A DNA stretch of 64,000 bases from Vicinamibacterales bacterium (GCA_965263055.1 OZ253581.1:553650-617649); one strand, 5' to 3'. Positions 6,632-23,916 are shown, counted from the first letter of the stretch. Numbers and translations are program-made. Notes: generated by a model not told the origin, from the sequence alone.

Positions 6632-8212
6632 TCAGAGCGCTCCGACCGTGCGGAACATCTGATCGACAGGAACGATGCGCGTGCGCTCCGCCGTGAACGG
6701 GAGCTCGTAGCTCTCGATCTCGGCGTCCTCGGCACGGATCGCCTCGGTCACGTCGGCGTTGTAGGCCGGGGGCGACGGTTCGTTCGCGAGCAGGGCGTCC
6801 CGGAACGCCTCGGCGTCGCGCGTGACGACGGCGACGGCCAGGCTGTCCGCCTGCAGGTGCCGGCGGATGGCGCCATTGACGTCGTCCAGGGTCAACTCCG
6901 GCAGGCGAGCGGCGATCTCGTCGATGAAGTCGCCGGTGCCGTAGACGGAAGAGTCCATGCCGTAACCGAGCCGCCGGCCGGTGGTCTGCACATACAGGCG
7001 CGAATAGTTCAGGAGGAACTCGCGCGTCGCCTCGAAGTCTTCCTGGCTCAGCCCCTCGTCCACCAGGCGGCGCAGCTCGCGGATCGCCTGGCGGAGTGCG
7101 AAATGCGCGTTATGGTGCGGCACCGGACGGATCCAGATGCTGAAGAACTGCTGGCTGCGCGGGACGTTCGGGACCGGCAGGCGCGACCCGCCGTCCTGGA
7201 TGAAGTTTTCGATGTAGGAATAGTCCCCGTAGTTCAAGCCGCGCGCGCCGCGCATCACGTTCATCAGCAGGCCGCTGAACGTCCGGTGCTCGCCGAAGTA
7301 CGAGTTCGCCACCATCAACGGGAAGAAATCGTCGTCGGCGCGCGTGATGTCGACCGGGAAGCCGATCGAGATCGCGGTGGCGATCGCTTGCTTCTCGACA
7401 ATCAGCAGCTCGTAGCCGTCCGGCCCGGTGGGCGCCGCGATGGCCGCGCGTGCCCCCTCCCCTGCCGGCAGCGCGTCGAGGATCTCGGTCTCGATCCGAT
7501 CGACCAGCCCGTCGGGGTAGCCGCCCCCGATACCGACCAGCGCACGGTCACGCGTGTAGTGCGACGCATGGAACGCGCGAACATCGTCGAGAGTGAGTGA
7601 CGCCAACCCCTCCTCGGTGCCGATGGACGGCGCTTCGTACGGATGCCCCGCGTGCAGCAGGACGTTCAGCGCCTGCTTGCCCAGTTCCTCGTCGTCGCTG
7701 CCGCGGAGGCCGGCGGTCACGCTGTTCACCAGGAAGTCGCGGTTCCGGTCGAAGTCGGCCTGATCGAAGCGGGGCGCGGTCACGAGGTCGCGCACGATGG
7801 CAAAGAACGGGTCCAGGTGGTCGACGTGCACCTCGCCGACGAGCACCGTCATCTCCTTGTCGGACTGCGCACGGATCGCCGCCGACCAGGGGTAGAGCGC
7901 CTCGGTGATCGCCTCGTAGTCCATCGACGTCGTGCCGCCGCGCCCGAGCATCAGCGCGGTGAGGGCGTTCAGCCCGTTCTTGCCGGGCGGGTCGTCGACC
8001 GAGCCGGTCCGGAACCCGATCCGGAACGTGACGAGAGGCGAGTTCGCCACCGGCAGCTCGACGACGCCGGACCCGCCAGCAGCCCCGCCGCCGTTGCCGG
8101 GGTCCGACGGGCCGCAGGCGGCCACCGCGACGGACAGGATGAGGGCGGCAGCGGGTAGCAGCGAATGCCGGCGTGGACGCCGGCGCACTATCCGCCGGCG
8201 CGGCCCGGTCAC
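6632..8212 (-). CDS. M16-family (pitrilysin-like) peptidase subunit without an HxxEH motif
   Basis: 526-aa secreted protein with M16 N/C-domain-like sequence. No zinc motif seen. 4-nt overlap with the upstream M16 gene. Confidence 0.75.
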   Translation of the reverse strand: MTGPRRRIVRRRPRRHSLLPAAALILSVAVAACGPSDPGNGGGAAGGSGVVELPVANSPLVTFRIGFRTGSVDDPPGKNGLNALTALMLGRGGTTSMDYEAITEALYPWSAAIRAQSDKEMTVLVGEVHVDHLDPFFAIVRDLVTAPRFDQADFDRNRDFLVNSVTAGLRGSDDEELGKQALNVLLHAGHPYEAPSIGTEEGLASLTLDDVRAFHASHYTRDRALVGIGGGYPDGLVDRIETEILDALPAGEGARAAIAAPTGPDGYELLIVEKQAIATAISIGFPVDITRADDDFFPLMVANSYFGEHRTFSGLLMNVMRGARGLNYGDYSYIENFIQDGGSRLPVPNVPRSQQFFSIWIRPVPHHNAHFALRQAIRELRRLVDEGLSQEDFEATREFLLNYSRLYVQTTGRRLGYGMDSSVYGTGDFIDEIAARLPELTLDDVNGAIRRHLQADSLAVAVVTRDAEAFRDALLANEPSPPAYNADVTEAIRAEDAEIESYELPFTAERTRIVPVDQMFRTVGAL

Positions 8213-9606
8213 GGCCGTTCCTCCTGTGTCATGACGACCACCGTGCGGTTGTTCGGGGCGAAGTACTCGGTCGCCACCTGCTGCACTTCCTCCGCGGTCA
8301 CCGCATCGTACAACCGGTAGACGCGGTTCACCGTCTCCGGATCCTCGGTCAACTGCAGGTAGTGCCCGAGCGTCCGTGCGATGTCACCCGGGTTGTTCAG
8401 TCCCATCGCAAAGCCGTACCGCATATGCGACTTGGTCGCCGCGAGCACTTCCGCGTCGACCGGCTCGGTCTTCATCCGCTCGATCTCGGCGACGATCGCG
8501 TCACGGACGTAGTCGATCCGCTCCGGGTCAGTGATCCGCGCAATGATCGTGAACAGCGGTGCGTCGCGGCTGTCGAGCGCGCTCCCCTGCACGACGTCGA
8601 CCACCTGCTCCTCCAGATACAGCTTCCGGAAGAGCGGCGATGTCTCCGAGAAGAGCAACTGCGACAGGACGTCGAGCGCCGGCATGTCGATCCGCTCGTC
8701 CGAGAAGGCGGGCGCGTGGTAGCCCATCATCAGCCACGGCAGCGTCGGGTTGGGCCACGTGATGCGCGCCTCGTGCGTATCGGTCTGCGGCGGCTCCCGC
8801 GGAATCTCCGGAACGAAGCTCCCCCGCTCCCAGCCGCTGTAGTACTGCCGGACGAGCCGCTCGAGCTCCGCCGTGTCCGCGTCCCCCACGACGACGATGA
8901 TGCAGTGCTCCGGCCGGTAGTACCGGTCATAGAACTGCAGGCTGTAGTCGTAGTGGTTCGGCATGTTCTGGATGTCCTCCAGCAGGCCGATCGTGGTGTG
9001 TTTGTACGGATGCGTCATATAGGCCAGGTCGTGCAGCCGCTCGCGCAGCAGCGAGACCGGGTTGGAGAAGTTGAGGTTGTACTCCCCCAGGATCGCCCCC
9101 GCCTCCGTCCGGAAGTCCTCCTCGGTGTAGCGCAGGTTCATGAAACGGTCCGACTCGAGATCGATGATCGTCTCCAGCGCGTCGGCCGCGGCGACGTAGT
9201 GATACGCCGTCCAGTCGCTCGTGGTGAAGGCGTTCGAGTCCGCTCCCATCACCTTCACCGCCTCGTTGTAGGCGTCCGTCGGGTACTTGTCCGTGCCGCG
9301 GAACATCATGTGCTCGAAGAAATGGGCATAGCCGGAAAAGCCCGGCTCCACCTCGTTCCGCGACCCGGTCCGGACTACCGTGTAGTAGGCGATGACGCCG
9401 GGACTGTCGTAGTCGATGGCCACTACCTTCAGGCCGTTCTCCAGCTCGAAGGTAGTAACCGGGAACGGGAAGACATCGGCGCGGTCCTGCCCGGCGGCCG
9501 GCGCCACGGAGACACCGGCCCCCAGCGCGATGACCGCCGCCGCGGCAAAGGCGCGCGCGTGCGCCAGCGCAGGCTCCCGCCGCCGCACCCTCCGCCTCGT
9601 GCTCAT
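8209..9606 (-). CDS. M16-family zinc peptidase, catalytic-type subunit
   Basis: Inverted zinc motif HFFEH followed by MMFRGT. Signal peptide. 465 aa. Confidence 0.85.
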   Translation of the reverse strand: MSTRRRVRRREPALAHARAFAAAAVIALGAGVSVAPAAGQDRADVFPFPVTTFELENGLKVVAIDYDSPGVIAYYTVVRTGSRNEVEPGFSGYAHFFEHMMFRGTDKYPTDAYNEAVKVMGADSNAFTTSDWTAYHYVAAADALETIIDLESDRFMNLRYTEEDFRTEAGAILGEYNLNFSNPVSLLRERLHDLAYMTHPYKHTTIGLLEDIQNMPNHYDYSLQFYDRYYRPEHCIIVVVGDADTAELERLVRQYYSGWERGSFVPEIPREPPQTDTHEARITWPNPTLPWLMMGYHAPAFSDERIDMPALDVLSQLLFSETSPLFRKLYLEEQVVDVVQGSALDSRDAPLFTIIARITDPERIDYVRDAIVAEIERMKTEPVDAEVLAATKSHMRYGFAMGLNNPGDIARTLGHYLQLTEDPETVNRVYRLYDAVTAEEVQQVATEYFAPNNRTVVVMTQEERP

Positions 9607-11029: not shown

Positions 11030-12409
11030 TTACTGGTAGTCCACCGCCGCCAGCGAGACGCGGATGATCTCCTCGTCGTTCCGTGTCACCAGGTGGCGGT
11101 TGGCGTAGGCCGGGTGGGTCCAGTTGACCGCCCGGTCCTCGAAGCGACGCGGTCCGTAGCCCGAGCGCGACGTCGCCTCGATCAGCGTAGTCCGATCGAT
11201 CTCCTCGTAGCCTTCCGGCGTGAACCGCGCGATCATCAGGTCGCCGGCGTCGTTGTTGACGAAGTAGCGGTCGCCGTGGCGCACCATGAACGCGGCGCCC
11301 CAGCGGCGCTGCGCGGTCATCTCATCCGACACCCAGAGCCGCTCTCCGGTCCGCGCGTCGAGGCCGCGCAGCTCGCCGTAACTGTCGACCCCGTAGATGT
11401 AGTCGCCGTCGACAATCGGCGTCGTGATGACCGAATGGAGCGCCCTGGTATCGTCCGGCATCTCGCTCGAGCCGCTGATCTGCCAGACCTGCTCGGCGGC
11501 GGGCCGGTCGCTGGCGAGGCGAAGCATCATCGACCCGCCGTACAACTGGGTCAGAAAGAGCTGGTTGCCGTCCCGGACCGGTGTGGCCACGGTCATGCTC
11601 GAGGGGACCTCCCACCGCTCGGACCAGTAGATCGCCCCGGTCTCCAGATTGAGCGAGGTGACCGCGGTCGGATGCCAGACGATCAACTGCCGCACGCCGC
11701 CCGCCTCGTAGATGACCGGCTGGCCGTAGCCCATCTCGTTGGTCACGTCGATCGCGCGCCAGATCTCCTCGCCCGTCATCTTGTCGAACGCCATCACCAG
11801 TCCGTCCGGCTCGGCGCCGACGATGTGGATCAGGCGGTCGCCATCGACGATGGGGGCGCTGGCCGTTCCCCAGATGGGCACCGTCGTGTCGTAGTCCGTC
11901 GCCGTATCGTGCTGCCAGAGCACCTCACCGGTCTCGACCTGCAGGCAGAGCAGCATCCCGGCCCCGCCGGCAACATAGACCCGGTCGCCATCGACGGTCG
12001 GCGTGGCGCGCGGCCCGGTCGCGTAGGACAACATCAGGTTGCGGTAAGCGGTCAGCCACTCGTACGTCCAGAGGACGTCGCCCGTCGCCTCGTCGAGCAC
12101 CAGCAGCCGCTCGGTGCCGTCCATCACCCGCGTTTCCGGCAGGAACTCGAAGTCGGTGACGAACACCCGGCCGTCGACGATCGCCGGGCCCGAGAAGCCC
12201 GACTCGATCGGCGTCCGCCACGCAACTCTCAACCCGTCGGCCGGGAAGCGGTCGATGATGCCATCCTCGGTCCACACCCCCAGGCGGCCGGCGCCGCGCC
12301 ACTCCGGCCAGTCGGCCGCCCCGAGCGCCGGCGACACAAGCGCCAGTCCGACGGCTGCCAGCATCCATCCCGAAACCGATCGACCCGACCGGCGCGGCGC
12401 TATTCGCAT
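11030..12409 (-). CDS. Secreted PQQ-like beta-propeller repeat protein (BamB-like fold)
   Basis: Signal peptide MRIAPRRSGRSVSGWMLAAVGLALVSPALGAADWPEWRG. Repeated propeller-blade motifs of the type V.V....G.L..LD..TGE.LW. The first 106 codons of the track ORF look non-coding, so the start is placed at Met-107. Confidence 0.7.
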   Translation of the reverse strand: MRIAPRRSGRSVSGWMLAAVGLALVSPALGAADWPEWRGAGRLGVWTEDGIIDRFPADGLRVAWRTPIESGFSGPAIVDGRVFVTDFEFLPETRVMDGTERLLVLDEATGDVLWTYEWLTAYRNLMLSYATGPRATPTVDGDRVYVAGGAGMLLCLQVETGEVLWQHDTATDYDTTVPIWGTASAPIVDGDRLIHIVGAEPDGLVMAFDKMTGEEIWRAIDVTNEMGYGQPVIYEAGGVRQLIVWHPTAVTSLNLETGAIYWSERWEVPSSMTVATPVRDGNQLFLTQLYGGSMMLRLASDRPAAEQVWQISGSSEMPDDTRALHSVITTPIVDGDYIYGVDSYGELRGLDARTGERLWVSDEMTAQRRWGAAFMVRHGDRYFVNNDAGDLMIARFTPEGYEEIDRTTLIEATSRSGYGPRRFEDRAVNWTHPAYANRHLVTRNDEEIIRVSLAAVDYQ

Positions 12410-12665
12410 CAAGAATTTCTCCGTTGCCAAGGTCCGGCCCGGGCACACGCGCCCCCCGGATGTACCGCGCCTATTGTCGCGCAAATCCGACGGCGGGCAA
12501 AACGTCCTTGCCGGCGCAGGCCGAATTGACGCCGCGCAGCCGTTTCGAACCGTCCCCTGTCGAGGACAGGCTCGTCCGCTAGCGAGACAGGCCACTGCCG
12601 CTGCCGCGCGCCGGGCGCCTCCGCAAGACCCCTCGTTCCGGGAACCCGCCGGTCGTGCACCGAAG

Positions 12666-12682
12666 TGGCACACGGTATGCAT
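12666..12682 (+). promoter_or_regulatory. Candidate sigma-54 (-24/-12) promoter
   Basis: TGGCACacggtaTGCAT has canonical GG-N10-GC spacing and lies about 45 nt upstream of the ATG at 12726. GACAGG / CCTGTC repeats lie 80-120 bp further upstream. Confidence 0.45.
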
Positions 12683-12725
12683 ATCTGCCGATTGTGAGTG
12701 CTCGATTGTCGGAAGGAGATACACC

Positions 12726-13982
12726 ATGTCACGCCTGATGCCGCGTTTCGCCTCGTCGTTGCTGGTGGCGCTTCTAGTGACCGCGCTCGGCGCGCCGGTC
12801 GTCGCTGTTTCGGCCGAAGCGGCGCAGCGGGCACGCCCCCGTGGCGGCGGACAGGCGTCGCCTCCCGCGCGATCCGCGCCAGCTCCCCGCGCGCAGGCTC
12901 CTGCTCGCCGGGCGCCAGCCGCACGGGAGCCAGCGCGGCGCGCACCGGCCCCAAGTCCATCGCCACCACGCGCGCAGGCTCCCTCACGGAGCGCACCCTC
13001 CGCGCAGCGGCGCGCGCCCTCTACTCAGCCGCCCCCGTCGGCTTCACGTCCGCCGGCATCGAATCGTCGTGATCGCGCGGCGCGTCCGGTCCAGCGACGC
13101 GCGCCCGACGCTGACGGACGCCGCACCCAGCGACCGTCTTCCCCGCAGCTCTCGCCGCCCGAGGCACCCTCGCGGCCGCGCGCGGCGCCACGTCGCGCAC
13201 CGGAAGCGGCAGCAGCGCCGACAGCTCCGCCCAACCGTCCCGGCCGGACCGATGGGGTTCGACCGAACCGTCCAACGACGCCTTCCGCAGGCGTCAACCC
13301 CCGCCGCACCGGCCGGCCGGCCGGCGGCGCAAGCGCTGCCGGACCGCGGCAGCGTGCGCCACAGGTAGTCGACCGGGGCCGCGCGGTGCCGCGCGTCGGC
13401 TCCGCACCCCGCGTCATCGATACGAGCCGGCCGCGCCTGCGGCGCGACGGCCGCGACTATCGGGTTCCGCAGCCCGGGTACCGCTACGGCTACAACTACA
13501 GAACCGGCTACGGCTACTACCGGCCGTGGCCGACCACCGTGCGGTACCGCCACGTCCCGCTCCGCGGTTACCTGCGGCCGCAGGTCCATGGCTCCTGGTT
13601 CTACTTCCCAGGCTTCCACCTCGGGGTGCCGGTCGGCTACCGCCCGTACGGCGGCGGCGTCTGGTCCACCTACCACTATCCGCACGGCGGCTGGTACGAC
13701 CCGTATGCGTACGGCGGCTACGCGTACAGCAATGGCTACAACGACTTCTACACCGGCTTCCTCCGGCTGAGGGTGCGGCCGCGCGACGCGCAGGTGTATG
13801 TCGACGGCTACTTCGTCGGGATCGTCGACGACTTCGACGGGTTCTTCCAGCGGGTGCGGCTCGAGGAGGGACCGCACACCGTCGAGGTCCGCCACACGTA
13901 CTACGAGACGCTCACGCTCGACGTCCTGATCGTCGCGGGCGAGAAAGTGACCTACGAAGGCGACCTGATTCCGCGGCCGTGA
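12726..13982 (+). CDS. Secreted protein: signal peptide, about 200-aa Arg/Pro/Ala-rich polybasic region, Tyr/Gly-rich region, C-terminal PEGA-like domain
   Basis: GGAGAT RBS 5 nt upstream of the ATG. Signal peptide MSRLMPRFASSLLVALLVTALGAPVVAVSAEAA. Repeats PRAQAP(A/S)R(R/S)AP. C-terminus LRVRPRDAQVYVDGYFVG...GPHTVEV...YETLTLDVLIVAGEKVTYEGDL. Confidence 0.65.
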   Translation: MSRLMPRFASSLLVALLVTALGAPVVAVSAEAAQRARPRGGGQASPPARSAPAPRAQAPARRAPAAREPARRAPAPSPSPPRAQAPSRSAPSAQRRAPSTQPPPSASRPPASNRRDRAARPVQRRAPDADGRRTQRPSSPQLSPPEAPSRPRAAPRRAPEAAAAPTAPPNRPGRTDGVRPNRPTTPSAGVNPRRTGRPAGGASAAGPRQRAPQVVDRGRAVPRVGSAPRVIDTSRPRLRRDGRDYRVPQPGYRYGYNYRTGYGYYRPWPTTVRYRHVPLRGYLRPQVHGSWFYFPGFHLGVPVGYRPYGGGVWSTYHYPHGGWYDPYAYGGYAYSNGYNDFYTGFLRLRVRPRDAQVYVDGYFVGIVDDFDGFFQRVRLEEGPHTVEVRHTYYETLTLDVLIVAGEKVTYEGDLIPRP

Positions 13983-13985
13983 CCC

Positions 13986-14047
13986 GGAGCCCGTGGCAAG
14001 ACCCCGCTACCGTCGAACGGCGATGCCGGGGTTTCGCCGCGGGCTCC
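13986..14047. mobile_element. Miniature (62-bp) derivative of the 166-bp TIR element
   Basis: GGAGCCCGTGGCAAGACCCCGC...GCCGGGGTTTCGCCGCGGGCTCC matches both terminal inverted repeats and the first ~20 internal nt of the full-length copies. It lies between two convergent genes. Confidence 0.6.
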
Positions 14048-14385
14048 TACCGTTCCGTCCCGCAGCTCCAGCAGGCGGTGAATTGCGCTTCGATCGTCTC
14101 GCCGCACTTGCGGCACCGCCACGTCTCGCCCTCCGTGCTGACGGGTGCACCCTTGGAGGTAGCGTACTCCTCGGCGATCTCGACTGCGCGGGCGTATAGC
14201 ACCGCGTCGTGGGCAAGCACCCAGAGCGAAGGACGGGTCTCCATGCCGAAGAGCGTCCCGCCCTGGAACGGCACGAAGTCGGCGCCGCGGATAACGACGT
14301 CGATCCCTTCCCGCTCGAGCAGGCCGCGCAGCAGGTGGGCGTCGCCCGGACCGTCGGCGACGTAAATCTTCCGGAGGTCCGACAT
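14047..14385 (-). CDS. DUF2007-like putative signal-transducing protein with a C-terminal zinc ribbon
   Basis: The N-terminus IYVADGPGDAHLLRGLLEREGIDVVIRG is typical of DUF2007. C-terminal CxxC-N10-CxxC (CRKCGETIEAQFTACWSC). Confidence 0.65.
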   Translation of the reverse strand: MSDLRKIYVADGPGDAHLLRGLLEREGIDVVIRGADFVPFQGGTLFGMETRPSLWVLAHDAVLYARAVEIAEEYATSKGAPVSTEGETWRCRKCGETIEAQFTACWSCGTER

Positions 14386-14387
14386 CT

Positions 14388-16037
14388 CTACTGCGCCGGC
14401 GGCACGTCGATCGACAACTCCGCGCCGAACATCGCGGTTCGATCCTGATCGATGGCGGCCCAGCGCAGCAGCGTCTCACTATCGGGTTCGACCATGTCGT
14501 CGAACACCGTGACGCCGTTGACGCTGACCGTGATCGACTGCGTGAAGTCGAACTGCTCGGGCGACAGCAGCAACGTAAACCCTCGGACGCCGCGCGTGTA
14601 GGCATTGACGCGGTTGCCGCGCTGATCCAGCTCGACCCGCCCGGCCGGGTTGCGTCTCGGGAACGCCTGGCGACCCTGGGGGGCGGCGTCGGCGGGATAG
14701 ATCAGCGCAATGTCGAGGCGCTCTCCCGACCGCTCGATGACCAGCGGGATCCGCTGCCCCGGCGCAAAGCCGATCAGCGCCTCCTTCAGGTCGTCCACCG
14801 ACGGATTCAACTGGCCGTCAACGGCGACGATGGTGTCGTCGTCCACCATCCCGGCGGCCGAGGCGATGGAATCCGCCCCCACCTCCAGGACCCGCAATCC
14901 GGTCCCGTCCTGCAGCTCACCGATCATGTTGATGCCGAGCTGCAGCCCCTGATTCGGATCCAGGATCGTGTTGTACGGATCGAGTTCCGGTTCCCCCTCG
15001 ACCTCGCCCAGATCGTCAATCACCAGCCAGTGCGCCCGATTGAAACGGTCCGCGGTACCCGTCTCCCACGACACTCGAGGCGATAGCGGCCGGCGTGTCT
15101 GTTCGGCCATGAACATCGCCATCGCGTCCGCCTCCTCGTCCCACCAGTCGGTGTTGTGGCCTGCCTCCGGCTTGACGCGGAAATCCACAAAGACGCCCGC
15201 CCCCTGGAAAAGCCGCATGAACGGAACGACCGTCGCCGCCGGATAAAGCTGGTCGCGGCCGCCGTTGACGACGAAGAGCGCCTTGTTGCGCAGGTTGGTG
15301 GCGTGCAGGTCGGTGTCCAGCCCGCCGGCAGGGTTGGCGAGGACTATCGGATGGCCGATCAGCAGGGTGAAGCCGGCCCACGGCGTGGTCGCCGTCATCG
15401 CCTGATAGTAGCCGCCGGTTGCGCCGTCGGAGATGCCAACCAGGTGGACCCGGTTCTCGTCGATGTTGTACGTCCGCTTCAGGTCGTGCAGCACACCTGC
15501 GAGGTTCTCGACCTGGCTTCCGTGCCACCAGAGCGATTCCGGCCACGAAAGCGGCGCCACGACAATGGCGTCCTCGCGGGCAAAGCGTTCCTCCCGGCGC
15601 CACCAGCTCCCGTCGTCCCGCTTCGGACGTGCAACACCGCCGTGCAGGTAGACCACCGCCGGGTATCGGACCGCCGGGTCGTAGCTGTCCGGCACGAGGA
15701 CGACGTACGGATGCTCGACCCCGTCGCGGTTCGTGCGGGTCAGTAGGCGCCGGCCGGTCGGGACGTCGTCCCGATAGGCCCGGCCGGCGCGCAACCGGCG
15801 CCAAATCGACTCGATGTCGGGCTCGAGTTCAAGAATGGCGGACGTCGCCGCGGCGAACTCCGCTTCGGTTGCCGACGCCCAGAACTGCTCCACCGCGGAG
15901 TCCAACGCCAAGTCGTCGTCCGACGACTGTCCGGCTCGCGCGGGGAGTGCGGCGACAGCCAGCAGCCCGACTGCCGCCGCGGCGATAGGCACGAACCGGA
16001 CGCGCGTCGCAGCAAGGACGCGCGTCGCGCAGGTCAC
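14388..16037 (-). CDS. Secreted alpha/beta hydrolase (peptidase/esterase type) with a C-terminal PDZ domain
   Basis: Signal peptide. Nucleophile elbow GISDG. YLHGG oxyanion-like segment. PDZ-like GLRVLEVGADSIASAAGMVDDDTIVAVDG...GQRIPLVIERSGERL. Confidence 0.7.
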   Translation of the reverse strand: MTCATRVLAATRVRFVPIAAAAVGLLAVAALPARAGQSSDDDLALDSAVEQFWASATEAEFAAATSAILELEPDIESIWRRLRAGRAYRDDVPTGRRLLTRTNRDGVEHPYVVLVPDSYDPAVRYPAVVYLHGGVARPKRDDGSWWRREERFAREDAIVVAPLSWPESLWWHGSQVENLAGVLHDLKRTYNIDENRVHLVGISDGATGGYYQAMTATTPWAGFTLLIGHPIVLANPAGGLDTDLHATNLRNKALFVVNGGRDQLYPAATVVPFMRLFQGAGVFVDFRVKPEAGHNTDWWDEEADAMAMFMAEQTRRPLSPRVSWETGTADRFNRAHWLVIDDLGEVEGEPELDPYNTILDPNQGLQLGINMIGELQDGTGLRVLEVGADSIASAAGMVDDDTIVAVDGQLNPSVDDLKEALIGFAPGQRIPLVIERSGERLDIALIYPADAAPQGRQAFPRRNPAGRVELDQRGNRVNAYTRGVRGFTLLLSPEQFDFTQSITVSVNGVTVFDDMVEPDSETLLRWAAIDQDRTAMFGAELSIDVPPAQ

Positions 16038-16984
16038 GGCTGGCTTTCTGTCGCTGCCTGCGCACCACCCAGGCCATGCTGGCCCAGGAAGCGCTGGATC
16101 GTTTCGAAGATCGCGGTCGTCTCTTCGCGGTTGAATCCGCCGTGGCCGCCGCCGGGAACGGTATGCAATTCGTTCGACACGCTGGCGCCCGACAACGCTT
16201 CGTGCAACCGGACCGCATGCCGGTACGGCACGGTCGGGTCGGCATCGCCATGGATCGTCAGCACCGGGGGCAGCCCGGAGCGCACGTAAGTGAGCGGTGA
16301 GACCCTCTCGGCCACGTCTTTCCGATCCGCGAGGCTCCCCATCCAGCGAACCGCGTACGTCTTCTCGTTCGCCCCCGCCAGCAGGTCGCCCACATCGGTG
16401 ATGCCGTACCAGTTGATGACGGCCGCGACCCCCAGGTCACCCCGCGGCTGACACTCCAGGTCGAGGCCCGCAGAGGCGGGGATCATCCCGGTAGTGAGGG
16501 CCAGATGTCCCCCGGCGGAGTTGCCGGTCAGAACGATACGGTCGGCGTCGAAACCGTACTGCTCGGCGTTCGCCTTCACCCAGTGCAGCGCGCAGAGGCA
16601 GTCCTCCACGGCGGCCGGCGCGCGAGAGATCCGGCCCAGGCGGTACTGGACGTTGACCACCGCCCATCCCTTCTCGAGCCACGGAAGCAGCCGAAGCACG
16701 TTGCTCTCCTTGCTGCCTCCGACCCAGCCCCCGCCATGGATGTACATCAGGACCGGCGCGGGGCCCGCGCTGTTGCGCGGCAGGTAGAGATCGACCCGGT
16801 TCTCGAAACCGTTCGCGACGTGGTAGGTCACGTTCGGCACCACCCGGAATTCGTTGGAGACATGCGAAGCCCAGATCTCGGTGGAGCCGAGTTGGGCGTC
16901 CGCCACGGACGGTGCTGCCGCCAAGGCGACGACGGCAAACAGAGAAGCAAACGCGAGAGATCGTCTGGTCATGGCCCCTCCCAT
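16034..16984 (-). CDS. Alpha/beta hydrolase, HSL/carboxylesterase-like
   Basis: HGGGW oxyanion motif and GNSAGG nucleophile elbow. Signal peptide. 4-nt overlap with the downstream gene. Confidence 0.8.
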   Translation of the reverse strand: MGGAMTRRSLAFASLFAVVALAAAPSVADAQLGSTEIWASHVSNEFRVVPNVTYHVANGFENRVDLYLPRNSAGPAPVLMYIHGGGWVGGSKESNVLRLLPWLEKGWAVVNVQYRLGRISRAPAAVEDCLCALHWVKANAEQYGFDADRIVLTGNSAGGHLALTTGMIPASAGLDLECQPRGDLGVAAVINWYGITDVGDLLAGANEKTYAVRWMGSLADRKDVAERVSPLTYVRSGLPPVLTIHGDADPTVPYRHAVRLHEALSGASVSNELHTVPGGGHGGFNREETTAIFETIQRFLGQHGLGGAQAATESQP

Positions 16985-17046
16985 TCTCCGCGAACGAGTT
17001 GTCCGCAGAGTATAGAACAGCTACCGTCAATCCTGCACTCTGCCCG

Positions 17047-17212
17047 CTAGGAGCCCGTGGTGAAACCCCGCGTAGCACCGAGAGCGGTGAGGCGCCCGCC
17101 TGACAAGGCGCGACGAGGGAGCATATTGGCCATATGCGACCGAGGAGCAACGCCGTTCAGGCGGGATGCATCGCCGCTCGAATGTAGTGGGGGTTTCACC
17201 ACGGGCTCCTAG
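17047..17212 (+). mobile_element. 166-bp MITE/REPIN-like element, copy 1
   Basis: CTAGGAGCCCGTGGTGAAACCCC ... GGGGTTTCACCACGGGCTCCTAG, about 23-bp terminal inverted repeats. The interior can pair into a long hairpin. Near-identical copies lie at 19204 and 21307. Confidence 0.8.
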
Positions 17213-17278
17213 ACCACCGCCACGCCGTTAACTCTGTGACGCCTCGCCGGATATCATGGCCCCGAAGGCGGAGGAACC

Positions 17279-19207
17279 ATGAGTACAGCAATTCGCGCGC
17301 TCTCGATTGCGGCAGCCATCGCGCTGTTCCCGGCGACGGACGGGCTGGCGCAGATCACCGAGTTCAACGTGGAGGTAGTCGAGTCGCCGGCGCTCGACGG
17401 GCAGCGCTTCGGTGAGGTGGGCCAGTACGAGCGGCTCCGGGGCATCGTGACGGGTGCGGTCGACCCGGCCGATCGGCGCCACGAGCACATCGTCAACCTC
17501 GATCGCGCACCCCGCAACGCGGCGGGCCTGGTGGCGTATCGCGCCACGGTGGAGATCTACCGCCCGGTCGACATGAGCCAGTGGAATGGCGCCATCTTCC
17601 ACACGGTCTCGAACCGGGGCGGAGCGGGAGCGGCCGAGCCCGCGCTGCTCGAGCGCGGGTTTGCCTTCGTCCGAGTGGGATGGCAGGGCGAGTTGACGCC
17701 GACGGAAACGAACATCGTCGCCTACCTGCCGGTCGCGACGAACCCCGACGGCTCGCCGATTGTCGGGCCGGCCCTCGAGGAGTTCATCTTCAATAATGCC
17801 GAGCCCCGCTCGCGCGGCCGCCTGACCTATCCCGCCGCCTCGCTCGACCCCGGGGGCGGGATGCTTTCGGTCCGTGCGAACCAGAACGGCAAGCGGGAGG
17901 CACCGCCGGATCTCGAGTGGCGCTACGTCAGCGATCGGGAAATCGAGATCGAGCGGCCGGTCGGCTCCGACGGCGGGGCGATCTACGAGTTCATCTACCA
18001 GGCGAAGGATCCGCTCGTGCTCGGACTCGGCTTCGTCGCGATGCGTGACGCCATCTCTTTCCTCCGTTACGAAACCGCTGACGCCACCGGCAACCCGAAC
18101 CCGCTCGCCACGGGGGACGGGCTCGCGGCCACTGCCCTGTCGCTCGGCATCTCCCAGAGCGGCCGGATGCTGCGGGACTTCCTCTATCAGGGGTTCAACG
18201 AGGACACCGCCGGCCGCATGGTTTTCGACGGCATCCACCCGAACATCGCCGGGTCGCGCAAGACGTTTACCAACTATCAGTTCGGCCAGCCGGGGCGCTG
18301 GCAGAAGCAGCACGAAGACCACGTGTACCCGGGCGATCAGTTCCCGTTCACCTACGCCACGCTGACCGATCCGCTCAGCGGCCGGACGGACGGCCTCCAG
18401 GAGCGGTGCCGCACTTCGAACACGTGCCCGAAGATCGTGCACAGCGACGGCGAGGCGGAGTTGTGGCAGGCGCGCGCGTCCCTGATCGTCACCGACCCCA
18501 AGGGACGGCACATCGACTTGCCGGACAACGTCCGCGCGTATCTCCTGTCCGGCACCCAGCATGGAGGCGGTCCGGGAGTCCACACGCGGCCGCCGAGCCG
18601 CGGGATGTGCCAGAACCTGAACAATCCTCTGGCGCTGGCGCAGACGCGGACCGCCCTGAGCGTCACCCTGTACGAGTGGGTGGCGAACGGGGTCGAACCG
18701 CCGCCGAGCCGGTTCCCGACCGTCGCCGGGGGCGGTCTCGTTCCCGCGGGCGCACTCGGTTTTCCCGACATCCCGGGAGTGACGTACTCCGGGTCGTACA
18801 ACCCACTGCGCCTGGCGGACCACCGCTCGCTCCCCCCGATGCACGGCGATGCCTACACGGTGTTGGTCGGGCGCGTCGACGCGGACGGCAACATGCTGGA
18901 CGGCGTGCGGCACCCCAACCTTGCGGCGCCGGTCGGGACATACACCGGCTGGAACCTCCGGCGTGACGGCTTCGCCGAAGGGGCGCAGTGCGCCGGAACC
19001 GGCTCGTTCGTCCCGTTCGCAGCAACCGAAACGGCGCGTAGGGAGTCCGGCGATCCGCGCCCGTCGCTCGAAGCGCGGTACGCCGACCACGCCGCTTACG
19101 TTCGCGCCGTTTCCGAAGCGGCCGACGCGCTGGTGGAAAGCCGGGTCCTGCTTCCAGTTGACGCGGACGCCATCGTGGATCGGGCACGTGCCGCTGGAAG
19201 CAACTAG
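17279..19207 (+). CDS. Secreted hypothetical protein (642 aa), possibly of the large 'alpha/beta hydrolase domain-containing' family
   Basis: GGAGG RBS. Signal peptide MSTAIRALSIAAAIALFPATDGLAQ. The long antisense 735-aa ORF is judged an artefact. The family assignment is recollection only. Confidence 0.6.
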   Translation: MSTAIRALSIAAAIALFPATDGLAQITEFNVEVVESPALDGQRFGEVGQYERLRGIVTGAVDPADRRHEHIVNLDRAPRNAAGLVAYRATVEIYRPVDMSQWNGAIFHTVSNRGGAGAAEPALLERGFAFVRVGWQGELTPTETNIVAYLPVATNPDGSPIVGPALEEFIFNNAEPRSRGRLTYPAASLDPGGGMLSVRANQNGKREAPPDLEWRYVSDREIEIERPVGSDGGAIYEFIYQAKDPLVLGLGFVAMRDAISFLRYETADATGNPNPLATGDGLAATALSLGISQSGRMLRDFLYQGFNEDTAGRMVFDGIHPNIAGSRKTFTNYQFGQPGRWQKQHEDHVYPGDQFPFTYATLTDPLSGRTDGLQERCRTSNTCPKIVHSDGEAELWQARASLIVTDPKGRHIDLPDNVRAYLLSGTQHGGGPGVHTRPPSRGMCQNLNNPLALAQTRTALSVTLYEWVANGVEPPPSRFPTVAGGGLVPAGALGFPDIPGVTYSGSYNPLRLADHRSLPPMHGDAYTVLVGRVDADGNMLDGVRHPNLAAPVGTYTGWNLRRDGFAEGAQCAGTGSFVPFAATETARRESGDPRPSLEARYADHAAYVRAVSEAADALVESRVLLPVDADAIVDRARAAGSN

Positions 19208-19369
19208 GAGCCCGGGGTGAAACCCCGCGTAGCACCGAGAGCGGTGAGGCGCCCGCCTGACAAGGCGCGACGAGGGAGCATATTGGCCATAGGCGACCGA
19301 GGAGCAACGCCGTTCAGGCGGGATGCCCCGCCGCTCGAATGTAGTGGGGGTTTCACCCCGGGCTCCTGG
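19204..19369 (+). mobile_element. 166-bp MITE/REPIN-like element, copy 2
   Basis: Same orientation as copy 1, with a few substitutions (GGGGTG for GTGGTG in the TIR). The right flank is TG instead of TA. Its first 4 nt, CTAG, contain the stop codon of the upstream gene. Confidence 0.8.
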
Positions 19370-19671
19370 AAATCGACGGCGATACCGATCACCAGCTCCG
19401 TGGGCCCGTCCGCCTCGGCGTTCAGGGGAGGCCAATCATTCCTGAAATCCGCCTGACCCTGCGGATTCCGGCGTGGCTGTCGCGGGGGCCGCTCCCCGCC
19501 GGCGTTTCCATCGCCGCAGGGTTCGCGGCACTCAACCTGCTGCTGTTCGTCCCCCTCTACCTCCTCTACTCGCAGGAGAACAACTTCTGGCCCTTCTTTC
19601 CCCTGGGACATCCCCGGGGGGATTACGACTGGGGATGGCCGGGCATCGGGCGCAGCACGTACGAGTACGTA

Positions 19672-21264
19672 ATGCAGTTGTTCGTCCGGCGCTACAACAA
19701 GGACATCTTTCGGGTCAGCGCGGACTGGATTTTCATCGTCTCGTCGCTGGTTCTCGCTAGCCGGTTCGCGAGCACCTGGCGGAGGGCCGCGGTGCCGCTC
19801 GCGGGGCTCGCCTACGCCGCGCTGCTCGCGTTCATGGCATACAGCGGCTTTGTCCACTACCTCTTCGATCGCCCCGGCACGCTGCTTGATGATGTCCTGA
19901 TGCTCGAGAGCGCCTGGATCGTGGTGCGCGACACCTGGGGGCCGACCGATTTCCTCTACTCCGCCTTCCTGCTGGCCACGGCAGTCGGGCTGGGCCTGCT
20001 GGTGACGCGCTATCTCCAGGCGGCATGGCGCTGGGGGGCCGGCCTCGACCCGCGGCGCGTGGCGGCCGGGTGCGTGATGCTCAACGCGTACTGCTTGCTG
20101 TCGCTCACCTGGTTCGGCGTAGCGCGGGACGATCCGATCATTCAGCTACAGGCAAAGCACCTGGTCTACAACTGGCAACGGTCTCAGGACGTGCTGGCCA
20201 CCGTCGAGGCGCTGGACAGTTCCGTGGTGCGGGTTGCCGCCAGCCTGGGCAACACGACACCGGTGCGCCGCCCCGACATCTATCTGTTCTCGGTCGAGTC
20301 GTACGGCGCGACGCTGTGGGCGGACGACGACTACCGTGTCGCGCGACAGGGTCTGATGCGCAAGGTGCAGAGCGAACTGGGCGAAGTCGGGCTGCCCATC
20401 TTCACGCGCTTCGCGGCCTCTCCGGTGTACGGCGGCGGATCCTGGATGAGTACGGCGTCGGCCCTGAGCGGAATGCGGATCGGCAACCATTCGTTGTACT
20501 GGGCGTGGAAGCGCATGGCTCACCGCTATCTCCATCTGATCGCCTACCTGCAACGCAATGGTTACTACACGCTGTCGGTTCAGCCCGGCGCCACGTGGAC
20601 CGAGGATCTCTACGACTACGACGAGGTAATCATTCGCGAAGATTTCTCTTACGACGGCTTTGCCTACGGTTTCGGCCACGTGCCGGACCAATGGGCTCTC
20701 GACTACGCGTTCCGCAACCACTGGAGCCGGCGCCCGCGTCCCCGGCTGCTTCACTTCGTGGCCACCTCCACGCACTATGCATGGGATCCGCCGCCCCGGA
20801 TTACGGAGGACGTCGCGGACCTGGAAATGCCGCAACCGACCTTTCTCGAGACCCGGCCCGACTATGTAGAGCTGGCGCTGACGGTTCCCCAGGGTCAGAA
20901 GCGGGATTTCTTCGTAACCGTGGCCTACGAGTGGGAGCTGTTGCTCGAGGCGTTCCGGAATCGGATCGAACCCGATTTCATCGCGCTGATTCTTGGCGAC
21001 CACCAGCCGCCGTTCATCACGGACGGCCAGGGCGACAGTGATGTCGCCCTCCATGTCGTTACGGACATTCCCGCGCTTCCGGGACTGCTGGCGGGGGCAG
21101 GCTTCGCGGCGGGCGGAAACGTGCCCTGGAAGCCCTCCGTGTCGACGGAGTTCGGGATGGAAGGCATTTATCCCTTCCTGTTGAGTCTGCTGTCCGCGGA
21201 AGCAGGAGACACCCTGGAGTACAGCCCGACCGGCATCGCGGTCCCGGAGTTGCCGACGTGGTAG
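19672..21264 (+). CDS. Membrane-anchored alkaline-phosphatase-superfamily (sulfatase/LTA-synthase-like) protein; the true start is probably upstream (see findings)
   Basis: N-terminal TM helices, then PDIYLFSVESYG and GGGSWMSTASALSGM segments reminiscent of sulfatase-like transferases. The frame is open and membrane-protein-like back to nt 19345. Confidence 0.55.
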   Translation: MQLFVRRYNKDIFRVSADWIFIVSSLVLASRFASTWRRAAVPLAGLAYAALLAFMAYSGFVHYLFDRPGTLLDDVLMLESAWIVVRDTWGPTDFLYSAFLLATAVGLGLLVTRYLQAAWRWGAGLDPRRVAAGCVMLNAYCLLSLTWFGVARDDPIIQLQAKHLVYNWQRSQDVLATVEALDSSVVRVAASLGNTTPVRRPDIYLFSVESYGATLWADDDYRVARQGLMRKVQSELGEVGLPIFTRFAASPVYGGGSWMSTASALSGMRIGNHSLYWAWKRMAHRYLHLIAYLQRNGYYTLSVQPGATWTEDLYDYDEVIIREDFSYDGFAYGFGHVPDQWALDYAFRNHWSRRPRPRLLHFVATSTHYAWDPPPRITEDVADLEMPQPTFLETRPDYVELALTVPQGQKRDFFVTVAYEWELLLEAFRNRIEPDFIALILGDHQPPFITDGQGDSDVALHVVTDIPALPGLLAGAGFAAGGNVPWKPSVSTEFGMEGIYPFLLSLLSAEAGDTLEYSPTGIAVPELPTW

Positions 21265-21306
21265 CCCGCGGTTGACCGGGATACGGCCATGAGCGGGTTG
21301 CCGGGG

Positions 21307-21472
21307 CTAGGAGCCCGTGGCGAAACCCCCACTACATTCGAGCGGCGATGCATCCCACCTGAACGGCGTTGCTCCTCGGTCGCATATGGCCAATAGGCTC
21401 CCTCGTCGCGCCTTGTCAGACGGGCGCCTCACCGCTCTCGGTGCTACGCGGGGTTTCACCACGGGCTCCTAG
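21307..21472 (-). mobile_element. 166-bp MITE/REPIN-like element, copy 3 (inverted relative to copies 1 and 2)
   Basis: Reverse complement of copies 1/2 with about 10 substitutions. Its right-hand CTAG supplies the stop codon of the minus-strand gene 21469..23916. Confidence 0.8.
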
Positions 21473-23916
21473 CGAAGGCGTTCCGCGACGCCCCGCAGCG
21501 TAGCCGCCAGCCCGCCGAGGCGCTCCTGGCTACTTCCCGTCGCGGCGGCGCTCTGCTCCTCCACTCGCTCCGCGGCGGTAACCAGCTCCGCCGCCAGCCC
21601 CGCGTCTCTGTCCGCGCCCTCCGCGCGATCGAGCAGGTTTGACAACGCCGTGCGGCGTTCCGCGGAGAGTGTGTCGCTGCGGCCGAGCTGGTCGAGGTAG
21701 GCGCGGGCGACAACCGGCCGCGCGGACCAGTCGATGCGCCGCTGCTGCTGGGCGTTGAACCCAGGCGGCGCGACTGACGCGGCGGCAGCGAGCTCGTTCA
21801 CTGTCAGGTGTTCGCTCGGGAGCAGCTCCAGCACGTCGAGCCCGCGGGCGATCTCCGTGCCGTAGATGTAGCCCCGGTACCAGTACGCCGACCAGAAGCC
21901 GCCCATCACGAGCCGCTCACTGTCAATCGGGCCGCGGTCGAAGTACGCGATCTCGACCGGATTCACCGAGTCGGTGAAATCGAAGACCGAGATGCCTCCC
22001 TGGTACCACGCCTGCACCATGATGTCGCGGCCCGGCACCGGCACGAGGGAGCCGTTGTGCGCCACGCAATTCTCCCGTTCGGTCTGGGGCACGGGCAGCT
22101 TGTAGTGGCTGCGGAACTCCAGCCGGCCGTCGACGATGTCGTAGATGGCGTTCGCCCCCCACTCGCGGGGGTCGGACGCACGGCAGCGCGGGCGCCCGCC
22201 GCCGCCCCATTCGTCGGTGAAGATCACCTTGGTGCCGTCATTGTTGAACGTCGCCGAGTGCCAGTAGGCGAACGAGGGGTCGGTCGCGTCGTCAAGCCGG
22301 GCCGGATTGACCGGGTCGGAAATGTCCAGCAGGATGCCGTTCCCGGAGCACGCCCCGGCCGCCAGGCCGATCTCCGGGAAGGCGGTGATGTCGTGGCACC
22401 GGCTGCTCTCCGAGGTGCGCTGCGTGCCCGGGCCGTGGTCGCCGCCGCGCCACAGGCCAGCGACGTTGCCGGTCTCCGGGTCCCGGAAGACGAAGGGTCG
22501 GCTGACGACGCCTGCCTCCTCGGGCCGCGCCAGCGGGATCCGGATGACGTCGATCCGGAAGAGCGCGGTGTCCGGGTTCTCGGCCGGCGATTCGTCCGAG
22601 CAGCCCTCGAGCTCCTCCCCGGAACGGACGGAACCGGTTCCGGAACCGTAGACGTAGACGTTGCCCTCGTCGTCGGGATCGGTCACCACGGTATGGGTAT
22701 GCGATCCGCGGCAGGTCTGCACCGCCGCCACCTGCCGGGGCATCCGCATATCGCCGATGTCGAAGATCCGGATACCGCGGAAGCGCTCTTCGCTGACCGG
22801 CTCCGCGACCCCCTGCAACCCGCAGTCGAGCCGGCCCCGCGTCTGCTCGACCGACATGATCAACAGGTTGCCCACGACGGAGACGTCGCCCTGACCGCCG
22901 GGGCAGACCACGGAAGTAACCAGTTGGGGCGAGGCCGGGACTTCGACGCGATAGGTGTTGAACCCGTGGTAGCTGCCTACGAAGACCTGGTCGCCGGCGA
23001 ACGCGAGATCGGTGTTTCCGAAGTTGAGCAGACCGCGCCGCCGCCGGTTCTGCCGGTCGTCTTCTTCTTCCGCCGCTTCCGCCGCGCCCGCATTCGCTGG
23101 CGCATTCCCGGTCTGCGCGGCATTCGTCTCCGGCGTCTGCCCGGCCGCGTTGGGATCGTAGAAGCCATCCGGCTTCGGGCGCGTCGCGACGAGCGCCATG
23201 TTCCAGACCGCCTCGCCGGCGTCATTCAAACCGGACGCGAGGTCGACCCTCGGATCGACCGTCAACTGTCCGAGCAAGGCGTCCATCCGGTCGATTTCCA
23301 TGCTCTGGTCGGCCTCTATGTCGGAGGTGAACGCGAAGAGCTGCGAATCCTGCGCCGCGCCGGGTTGGTCGAGGAGGTTCTCGACCATCGTCAGGGCGCC
23401 GCCATGGTGCTTGATCATCAGTTCGAGGAAGAGCCGGTCGAAGTCGACCCCGTCCGCCGCGGCGAGCTGGTCCATCTCTTCCGGGGTCAGCATGCCCGGC
23501 ATCGGCATCCAGTCGGGCGCATGATGCGCGTCCGTCTCCGTAACCGTCTGGCCGCGCTCGCGCAGCCACTCCTGCATCATCTCGATCTCGTCTTCCTGGG
23601 AGAGCTCGATGCGCCGCGCCATCTGCCGCATGGCGTCGCTCGCGGGGCGGGGATCGAGCAACTCTGTCATCTCCAGCGCCTGGGCGTGGTGAGGGATCAT
23701 CCCCTGCATGAACTTCACGTCGGCGTCGGTGAACCGGATGCCGGCGAGGTCCGAGGCTTCGGCAGCGGAAATCGAGCGGCTCGGCTCACCCGGCGCGCCG
23801 GGCTGCACGATCGGAGGTTGTTGCGCCTGGCTGGCTGCGGCGCCGAACCACAGAAACGCCGCGCCGGCCAGAACGATCGTGGCGGCGGATGGCCTGCGGA
23901 GATGCTGGAGGTTCAT
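21469..23916 (-). CDS. Secreted fusion protein: N-terminal DUF305 (four-helix, His-rich) plus a C-terminal LVIVD-type beta-propeller
   Basis: Two DUF305 half-motifs, MIPHHAQALEM and MIKHHGGALTM. The downstream region has GNLLIMSVE-type repeats. Start at MNLQHLRRP (AGGAGA RBS), with a signal peptide. Confidence 0.7.
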   Translation of the reverse strand: MNLQHLRRPSAATIVLAGAAFLWFGAAASQAQQPPIVQPGAPGEPSRSISAAEASDLAGIRFTDADVKFMQGMIPHHAQALEMTELLDPRPASDAMRQMARRIELSQEDEIEMMQEWLRERGQTVTETDAHHAPDWMPMPGMLTPEEMDQLAAADGVDFDRLFLELMIKHHGGALTMVENLLDQPGAAQDSQLFAFTSDIEADQSMEIDRMDALLGQLTVDPRVDLASGLNDAGEAVWNMALVATRPKPDGFYDPNAAGQTPETNAAQTGNAPANAGAAEAAEEEDDRQNRRRRGLLNFGNTDLAFAGDQVFVGSYHGFNTYRVEVPASPQLVTSVVCPGGQGDVSVVGNLLIMSVEQTRGRLDCGLQGVAEPVSEERFRGIRIFDIGDMRMPRQVAAVQTCRGSHTHTVVTDPDDEGNVYVYGSGTGSVRSGEELEGCSDESPAENPDTALFRIDVIRIPLARPEEAGVVSRPFVFRDPETGNVAGLWRGGDHGPGTQRTSESSRCHDITAFPEIGLAAGACSGNGILLDISDPVNPARLDDATDPSFAYWHSATFNNDGTKVIFTDEWGGGGRPRCRASDPREWGANAIYDIVDGRLEFRSHYKLPVPQTERENCVAHNGSLVPVPGRDIMVQAWYQGGISVFDFTDSVNPVEIAYFDRGPIDSERLVMGGFWSAYWYRGYIYGTEIARGLDVLELLPSEHLTVNELAAAASVAPPGFNAQQQRRIDWSARPVVARAYLDQLGRSDTLSAERRTALSNLLDRAEGADRDAGLAAELVTAAERVEEQSAAATGSSQERLGGLAATLRGVAERLR

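Follow-up and report, generated by a model that had tools for sequence, protein, structure and literature searches.

A miniature inverted-repeat transposable element (MITE) and the insertion sequence (IS) that is its partner usually share their termini alone. IS630 inserts at the TA within CTAG and duplicates this TA, IS1301 is a member of the IS5 family, and the ERIC, Correia and REPIN elements are short, high-copy hairpin elements that lie near gene ends and are co-transcribed, some of them with a TA target. IS5 itself duplicates the target Py-T-A-Pu (pyrimidine, T, A, purine), most often CTAG (PMC5493358), and the passages on MITEPsy1 of Pseudomonas syringae describe a 100-nt element, derived from ISPsy2 and with similar repeats, that inserts at CTAG or YTAA (PMC3189936). 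For IS1301 of Neisseria meningitidis, the part of the source that treats it gives the target consensus AYTAG and a duplicated TA (PMC2193550, citing Hilse 1996), so that elements other than IS630 also combine a CTAG-type target with a duplication of 2 bp. Here we describe a family of hairpin-forming repeats in a 64,000-nt stretch of DNA, at 69% G+C, from a Vicinamibacterales bacterium (GCA_965263055.1 OZ253581.1:553650-617649; hereafter the window), several copies of which end exactly on the stop codons of intact genes. Very probably, these repeats are an IS5-type MITE family of Vicinamibacterales (Acidobacteriota), and their landing on stop codons stems from target specificity combined with purifying selection.

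The system described here resembles the IS5 family in its transposase with DDE_Tnp_1 and an N-terminal DUF772 domain, in an IS of ~1.2-1.5 kb, in short terminal inverted repeats and in a duplicated Py-T-A-Pu target; it differs from IS5 in its termini (CAGCCCGTGG...), in its Acidobacteriota host and in a transposase that scores below the IS1182 and IS5 curated cut-offs. With MITEPsy1, as far as the passages on that element go, it shares short length, lack of autonomy, terminal repeats as the only part in common with the IS, and a duplicated CTAG target. MITEPsy1, however, occurs in few copies and is unrelated in sequence and host, whereas the present element reaches dozens of copies per genome and forms a full-length hairpin with covariation; the same passages mention no landing on stop codons (PMC3189936). 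IS1301, unlike the present MITE, is autonomous and belongs to another host, and the part of the source that deals with it reports neither a MITE nor a stop-codon pattern (PMC2193550). The TA (CTAG) target, the flanking TA and the short inverted-repeat form are also those of IS630/Tc1-mariner and their MITEs, whereas elements with the present ends carry an IS5-type DDE_Tnp_1 enzyme. The literature that we searched held no prior account of this element in Vicinamibacterales, of MITEs in Acidobacteria or of MITEs that land on stop codons. Vicinamibacterales are a dominant, poorly studied soil group, and the ERIC, Correia and REPIN elements differ from the present repeat in sequence and, where known, in mobilising enzyme; to our knowledge, exact overlap with a stop codon in ~45% of copies is not a described property of any of the three.

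The copies in the window, together with the genes and the gene remnant that end at their junctions, are as follows.

17050-17209, plus strand: MITE copy 1, 160 bp, with CTAG at 17047-17050 and at 17209-17212.

19207-19366, plus strand: MITE copy 2, 160 bp, with CTAG on the left at 19204-19207 and CTGG on the right at 19366-19369.

21310-21469, minus strand: MITE copy 3, 160 bp, in the opposite orientation to copies 1 and 2, with CTAG at 21307 and at 21469-21472.

13986-14047, no strand assigned: mini copy, a 62-bp hairpin built from both termini.

17279..19207, plus strand: gene of a full-length 642-aa Abhydrolase_10 protein, whose native stop was the target of copy 2.

21469..23916, minus strand: gene of a full-length 815-aa DUF305 protein, whose native stop was the target of copy 3.

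14047..14385, minus strand: gene of a 112-aa protein with weak, sub-threshold DUF2007/DUF7577 matches, whose TAG stop overlaps the base of the mini hairpin.

19367..19400, minus strand: remnant of a convergent gene now lost, with only its 3' end left (CTGG AAATCGACGGCGATACC...).

The 20-nt inverted terminus GGAGCCCGTGGTGAAACCCC has eight matches in the window at up to 3 mismatches, versus none in 100 shuffles, and the two arms of each full copy differ in these termini by 0-1 mismatch. The MITE is without an ORF (open reading frame) of its own; it measures 160 bp in the window and 159-196 bp across the family, with minis of 54-88 bp. All three full copies lie within 4.4 kb at 95-97% mutual identity, copy 3 being 97% complementary to copy 1. 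Copy 1 occupies the divergent intergenic gap between the starts of 16034..16984(-) and 17279..19207(+) and is on no real stop codon. The left junction CTAG of copy 2 holds the TAG stop (19205-19207) of the 642-aa gene, and within the right junction CTAG of copy 3 the CTA at 21469-21471 is the stop of the 815-aa gene. The mini copy takes up the whole space between two convergent genes, 12114..13982(+) and 14047..14385(-); its left flank is CCC, TA stands on the right side only, and its last base together with the TA at 14048-14049 forms the TAG stop (CTA at 14047-14049) of the minus-strand gene. The preliminary description of this DNA had noted that three genes stop at a TAG straddling an element end, as well as CTAG at either end of copies 1 and 3 and the CTAG and CTGG flanks of copy 2; all of this is confirmed with the coordinates listed above, and the three genes prove to be real and full-length. 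Homologues of the 642-aa protein measure 642-645 aa at 100% coverage, the DUF305 protein has 815-aa orthologues in the syntenic loci L099 and L100, and orthologues of the 112-aa protein at syntenic loci have the same length.

The comparison with element-free relatives, which the preliminary description had named as the way to see a target duplication, was made on syntenic loci with 85-93% protein identity and the gene order kept. Empty sites were found for all four elements of the window, with the target duplicated in the filled state and the protein lengths unchanged, and all three 160-bp copies are absent from L099, L100, L101, L185 and L189. At copy 2 the window reads GCAAC-TAG[element]CTGG-AAATCGACGG, and the empty sites read GCAAC-TAA-AAGTCGACGG in L100 and GCAAC-TAG-GCACTCG in L101. 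At copy 3 the empty site of L099 reads GCCGGC-TA-CCGCAGG, and its stop aligns with that of the window; in different relatives the stop of the 815-aa gene is TAG, TAA or TGA, at the codon aligned with the window's stop. For the mini copy, a 40-62-nt hairpin stands at the same place in L099, L100, L101 and L189, and the site is empty in L185/L186, where the convergent genes abut as TGA-CTA. The TA on the side that serves the stop is conserved and the other TA has decayed, to TG at copy 2 and to CC, CA, CA, CG and CG in the mini-copy orthologues. Because the element-free relatives end at the same codon, in all three stop cases of the window the element went into the TA of a stop codon that was already there, which duplicated the target and left the protein as it was. 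The right flank TG-G (19367-19369) of copy 2 is the decayed second copy of its target. The relatives' CTA at the start of the 19367..19400 stretch is the stop of a convergent gene that is still present in L185 at 7939-8742(-) and in L189 at 7984-8745(-), ending ...GAAATCGAC and GAAGTCGAC; a single CTAG/CTAA at this site once coincided with the stops of both convergent genes, and the duplication gave each its own. The mini copy is old, and the three full copies are recent, to judge from their absence in five relatives, their 95-97% identity and their clustering within 4.4 kb. A terminus-like match in these relatives (L099 12262 / L100 12343) lies inside coding sequence and was set aside as chance.

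Beyond the window, a census with a terminus-only pattern that held no flanking bases, run on one genome per species, returned at least 98 loci, nearly all in Vicinamibacterales metagenome-assembled genomes (MAGs) and dozens of them in one 4.55-Mb MAG. Matches outside Acidobacteriota (Streptomyces, Nocardioides, Kineococcus and others) were discarded, their number being that expected by chance, by our estimate, for an 18-base pattern in 596 Gb. The copy counts that follow refer to the copies among the matches listed in this census, namely 56, or 60 with the four of the window. The left flank reads CTA in 42 of the 56 paired copies and the right flank TAG in 39; TA stands on both sides in 45/60, and 36 of these 45 read C-TA[G...C]TA-G. 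L069 5030-5189 and L088 3633-3792, apparently one locus in two genomes, have CA on both sides instead (C-CA[...]CA-G).

This target is scarce: base composition predicts 182 CTAG in the window and a Markov model 70, whereas 12 are present, an under-representation of ~15-fold on the former count, and five of the 12 flank elements. By our own arithmetic CTAG is ~10-fold rarer in coding than in intergenic DNA, and TAG accounts for 217 (~38%) of 568 stops in the related loci, between TGA with 314 and TAA with 37. Given the rarity of CTAG, its depletion in coding DNA and the commonness of TAG stops, about one fifth of the available CTAG sites are a stop preceded by C. In the ORF list of the window about half of the stops are TAG; both shares are unusually high for a genome of 69% G+C.

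Stop association was scored with a crude GC-frame caller, in which a gene-like ORF has at least 80 codons, GC3 of at least 0.78 and GC2 of at most 0.62. For 27 of the 60 copies (~45%), a junction TAG is the exact end of such an ORF. Eight of these junction ORFs were compared with Pfam; six have domains, and because the matches to ribosomal protein L11 and to the M48 and M20 peptidases reach the profile end, the corresponding ORFs are intact genes. The background consisted of 786 kb of related loci with 9,740 TA dinucleotides and 164 unoccupied CTAG, a control freed of the flanks of diverged copies. A junction 11-mer allowing 2 mismatches gave 1452 matches without TA, and only its TA-flanked matches were used. 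Of the 164 free CTAG, 31 (19%) lie on a gene stop, 78 are intergenic and 55 are coding, and only 2.1% of the TA dinucleotides lie on stops. Occupied sites are thus enriched on stops both over free CTAG (27/60 versus 31/164; odds ratio 3.5, p=1.4e-4) and over the TA background (p=2e-29), and coding CTAG are under-occupied (p=0.03). Within the window alone, where two of the three full copies are on stops, the comparison with random CTAG sites falls short of significance (p=0.09). The MITE shows no preferred orientation towards the gene it abuts (16:10, p=0.33), which is what passive, target-driven insertion would give. In the preliminary description, CTAG/TA targeting, scarcity of CTAG and a concentration of insertions at stops without harm to genes had been proposed from the window, with a tabulation of flanks and stop distances against genomic CTAG as the check; the flank counts, the expected CTAG numbers, the enrichment over free CTAG, the empty sites and the intact junction ORFs all bear these proposals out.

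These data are consistent with a mechanism in which the 456-aa transposase of a partner IS, described below, would mobilise the MITE in trans, inserting it at Py-TA-Pu, overwhelmingly CTAG, and duplicating either TA or the whole CTAG. With the target duplicated, CTAG is rebuilt at both junctions. CTAG carries TAG on both strands, TAG is the second commonest stop, and CTAG is scarce and lies mostly outside coding DNA. An insertion at a stop CTAG regenerates an in-frame TAG and leaves the protein untouched; where the site is common to, or abuts, two convergent genes, each keeps its own stop. Selection would then remove insertions in coding CTAG, and with these lost the surviving population would be left with ~45% of its members on a stop codon. 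Target availability alone would place ~19% of copies on stops, and ~45% needs selective loss of coding insertions, possibly more; most of the extra enrichment is probably supplied by selection against coding insertions. We see here an example of a target rule that steers insertions to exact gene ends at no protein cost, through a palindromic target with a stop codon on both strands, the oligonucleotide biases of the genome doing the rest. For annotation this means that genes with TAG followed by GAGCCCGTGG are intact and that the intergenic hairpins at such places are mobile DNA rather than terminators.

Each insertion also doubles a rare CTAG and thereby creates new targets for the MITE and its parent IS, which may explain clusters such as the three copies within 4.4 kb of the window and those in L013, L016 and L089. 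At L048 2501-4166, nothing but TA separates the end of a full-length IS (~3970) from the start of a 194-bp MITE (3973); one element has thus inserted into the CTAG regenerated at the junction of the other.

The candidate parent was sought as termini 0.4-3 kb apart, and the best case is the following.

L070 2352-3821: candidate parent IS, with termini 1,470 bp apart that bracket a 456-aa ORF at 2421-3791.

Its ends read ccTA-GCAGCCCGTGGTGAAAGTCCC...CCACGGGCTGC-TAgg, and a 97% identical copy lies in L048, in a MITE-rich genome. The 456-aa protein matches DUF772 (PF05598) at 64.4 bits, with a cut-off of 23.1, and DDE_Tnp_1 (PF01609) at 25.3 bits, with a cut-off of 23; its best NCBIfam matches are IS1182 and IS5, none being IS630, and the sequence reads as IS5/IS1182-like. 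Scanning metagenomes with this protein yielded 80 loci; 49 IS copies of 1.46-1.55 kb, with 60-95% transposase identity, end in GCAGCCCGTGGTGAAAGTC...CCACGGGCTGC, and 34 of the 49 have the flanks CTA-...-TAG. Similarity between MITE and IS is confined to the terminal 19-20 nt, (G/C)AGCCCGTGGTGAAA. A relative on plasmid pLB1, 48% identical and annotated as 'IS5 family transposase', ends in CAGGCCGTTGACGAAGTC and has CTAA on both sides. L043 274-1444 and L071 2532-3976, which had come up as full-length IS, are without a transposase and consist of separate small elements that bracket ordinary genes. A more distant relative (81% identity) has another DUF772 plus DDE_Tnp_1 transposase gene at L187 8666-9805, on the downstream side of the orthologous hydrolase gene and ~700 nt from its stop.

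Duplications of 2 and 4 bp look the same at CTAG sites, and only deviant sites are informative. In the IS copies the supposed terminal base changes in step with the flank at the other end (three cases of CTAA/CTAA, two of TTAG/TTAG, and CTAA/CTAA on pLB1), which favours 4 bp; these concordant flanks would fit an IS that truly starts at CAGCCC, and the IS target is Py-TA-Pu as in IS5, probably with a 4-bp duplication. About nine IS copies have discordant flanks. The preliminary description had composed the stop TAG of the flanking TA and the terminal G of the element; the straddling stands, whereas the assignment of the G is uncertain, as it may belong to a 4-bp CTAG duplication rather than to the element. 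The duplication length has no effect on the outcome at the stop and changes only whether this G counts as element or target.

Several observations weigh against the interpretation as an IS5-type family filtered by selection. With coding sites set aside, the excess on stops over intergenic CTAG is ~2-fold with p=0.07, as measured with the crude GC-frame caller. Full-length IS copies seem to be on stops less often than the MITE, by a rough reading of metagenome contigs that are short and varied in G+C; their lower share fits selective filtering and also a benefit specific to the MITE. Nine MITE copies have a deviant outer flank base with an invariant inner G...C, which favours a duplication of 2 bp. 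The 456-aa transposase lies under the curated cut-offs of NCBIfam (156 versus 270 bits for IS1182, 83 versus 140 for IS5_4). Lastly, the link between MITE and transposase is drawn from shared termini, a shared target and co-occurrence, from which we infer mobilisation in trans.

The preliminary description had attributed the elements to IS630/Tc1-mariner, a transposase of which would move the MITE by inserting at the TA in CTAG and duplicating TA. The target and the apparent TA duplication do match IS630, and so do the nine MITE copies just mentioned, which behave as a 2-bp duplication would have them; CTAG/YTAR targeting, however, is equally typical of the IS5 family in what the sources say of it (PMC5493358, PMC3189936, PMC2193550). 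Every full-length IS found with MITE termini (~50, comprising L070, L048 and the ~49 metagenome copies) encodes DUF772 plus DDE_Tnp_1 of the IS5/IS1182 type, and no IS630-type gene lies next to any terminus examined. We therefore regard the IS630 origin as very improbable, and the likely family of this abundant, undescribed Vicinamibacterales repeat is corrected from IS630 to IS5-like. A different objection would be that a junction TAG ends any ORF that happens to be in frame, so that the 'genes' are truncated, extended or spurious. Long GC-rich ORFs are indeed common in these genomes, and spurious ones do end at junction TAGs, as does 16505..17050(+), which is antisense to the hydrolase gene and was rejected as a gene. 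Yet the element-free orthologues of the three genes end at the same aligned codon with the same lengths of 642, 815 and 112 aa, which refutes such an artefact for the window; a C-TA-G target, moreover, allows an in-frame TAG at a junction only where a stop stood before, and the L11, M48 and M20 matches run to their profile ends. An artefact thus has a next to negligible probability, and insertion of an IS5-type MITE into native stop codons is retained.

Each copy folds into a single end-to-end hairpin of -112 to -115 kcal/mol (z -7 to -10), in which the palindromic CUAG lengthens the basal stem and UAG lies inside it. Over 24 aligned copies, copies 1-3 of the window included, 97.8% of cells are paired, and compensatory double changes occur in 13 of 56 pairs versus 4.9±1.4 in shuffles (0/500 reach 13) and at most 4 with slid partners; copy 2 carries one such change, T...A to G...C at terminus position 9. 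On one strand G.U fills 100 cells in 22 pairs, two pairs being invariant, versus 11 cells of A.C in 9 pairs, and the G.U-rich strand would by prediction fold better than its complement. These pairing data suggest that the constraint acts on one single-stranded species, an RNA or a DNA transposition intermediate. A sigma-70-like motif, CTGACA-16 nt-CATATT, recognised by a consensus-match score only, lies near the element apex (17100-17127, 19257-19284 and the centre of copy 3) and is well conserved over the 24 aligned copies.

From this structure arises a third explanation, compatible with insertion by an IS5-type enzyme, in which a hairpin at gene ends is useful as a terminator, as an insulator of convergent genes or as an mRNA stabiliser, and is kept or enriched there, so that the landing on stops would result from target choice only in part. 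It draws on the strong single hairpin with UAG in its basal stem, on covariation above both shuffled and slid controls and on the one-stranded wobble, as well as on the mini hairpin between convergent genes, which by our reading of the sequences persists in five diverged genomes with paired stem changes, and on the MITE copies looking more stop-associated than those of the parent IS. The covariation, however, may also reflect the needs of transposition or the spread of subfamilies whose arms were already complementary, and the clustering of three recent copies within 4.4 kb looks like local hopping. A co-transcribed role is disfavoured by several results: orientation to the abutting gene is unbiased, no U-tract follows the hairpin, and a terminator scan made no terminator-like call at any copy. 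Rfam 15, searched with 13500-22000, has no match on the elements, its sole match being a weak ALIL inside a gene (20.8 versus 50 bits), and the stop excess shrinks to the ~2-fold noted above once coding sites are excluded. On balance we hold a beneficial hairpin unlikely as the cause of the stop association. A more specific form, in which CTAG-directed insertion is followed by retention of the hairpins as structured, strand-specific elements at 3' ends, their basal stem enclosing the stop codon, is likewise doubtful. If true, such a retained role, for example as insulator or stabiliser of convergent genes, would account for the covariation along the whole element and the ~9:1 ratio of G.U over A.C, as well as for the fact that the PEGA/DUF2007 junction has long kept its mini hairpin and for a stop association of the MITE above that of its parent IS. 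Target specificity and purifying selection remain the preferred explanation of the landing on stops.

Several further observations were made at related loci. In L185, from the MITE-rich genome, the orthologous stop of the 642-aa gene (7920-7945) carries a tandem duplication, GGAAGCAACTAG GGAAGCAACTTAG, the second part of which ends in the stop of the convergent gene; slippage may have produced it, or it may be a footprint left at that same CTAG. The same locus holds at 8723-8749 a 27-nt micro-hairpin, GGAGCCCGTGG-CGAAA-CCACGGGCTCC, with flanks CA and TC, which is built solely from the initial 11 nt of the terminus plus their complement and is the smallest derivative seen. A second palindromic repeat centred on CTAG, aacccccggcNNNNgCTAGcggggac or ggggtccccgCTAGcgcttgccggggg, occurs in several Vicinamibacterales loci (L071 7307 and 7361; L080 5325; L020 298; L027 2207 and 3319; L036 2672 and 4559). 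At the far end of the window, 48416-64000 on the minus strand is one open frame of more than 5,195 codons that continues past the window end; it contains nine 609-nt tandem units of 93-97% identity (53083-58254) and 72-nt arrays at 61622-62413 and 63134-63637, and probably encodes a giant repetitive surface protein.

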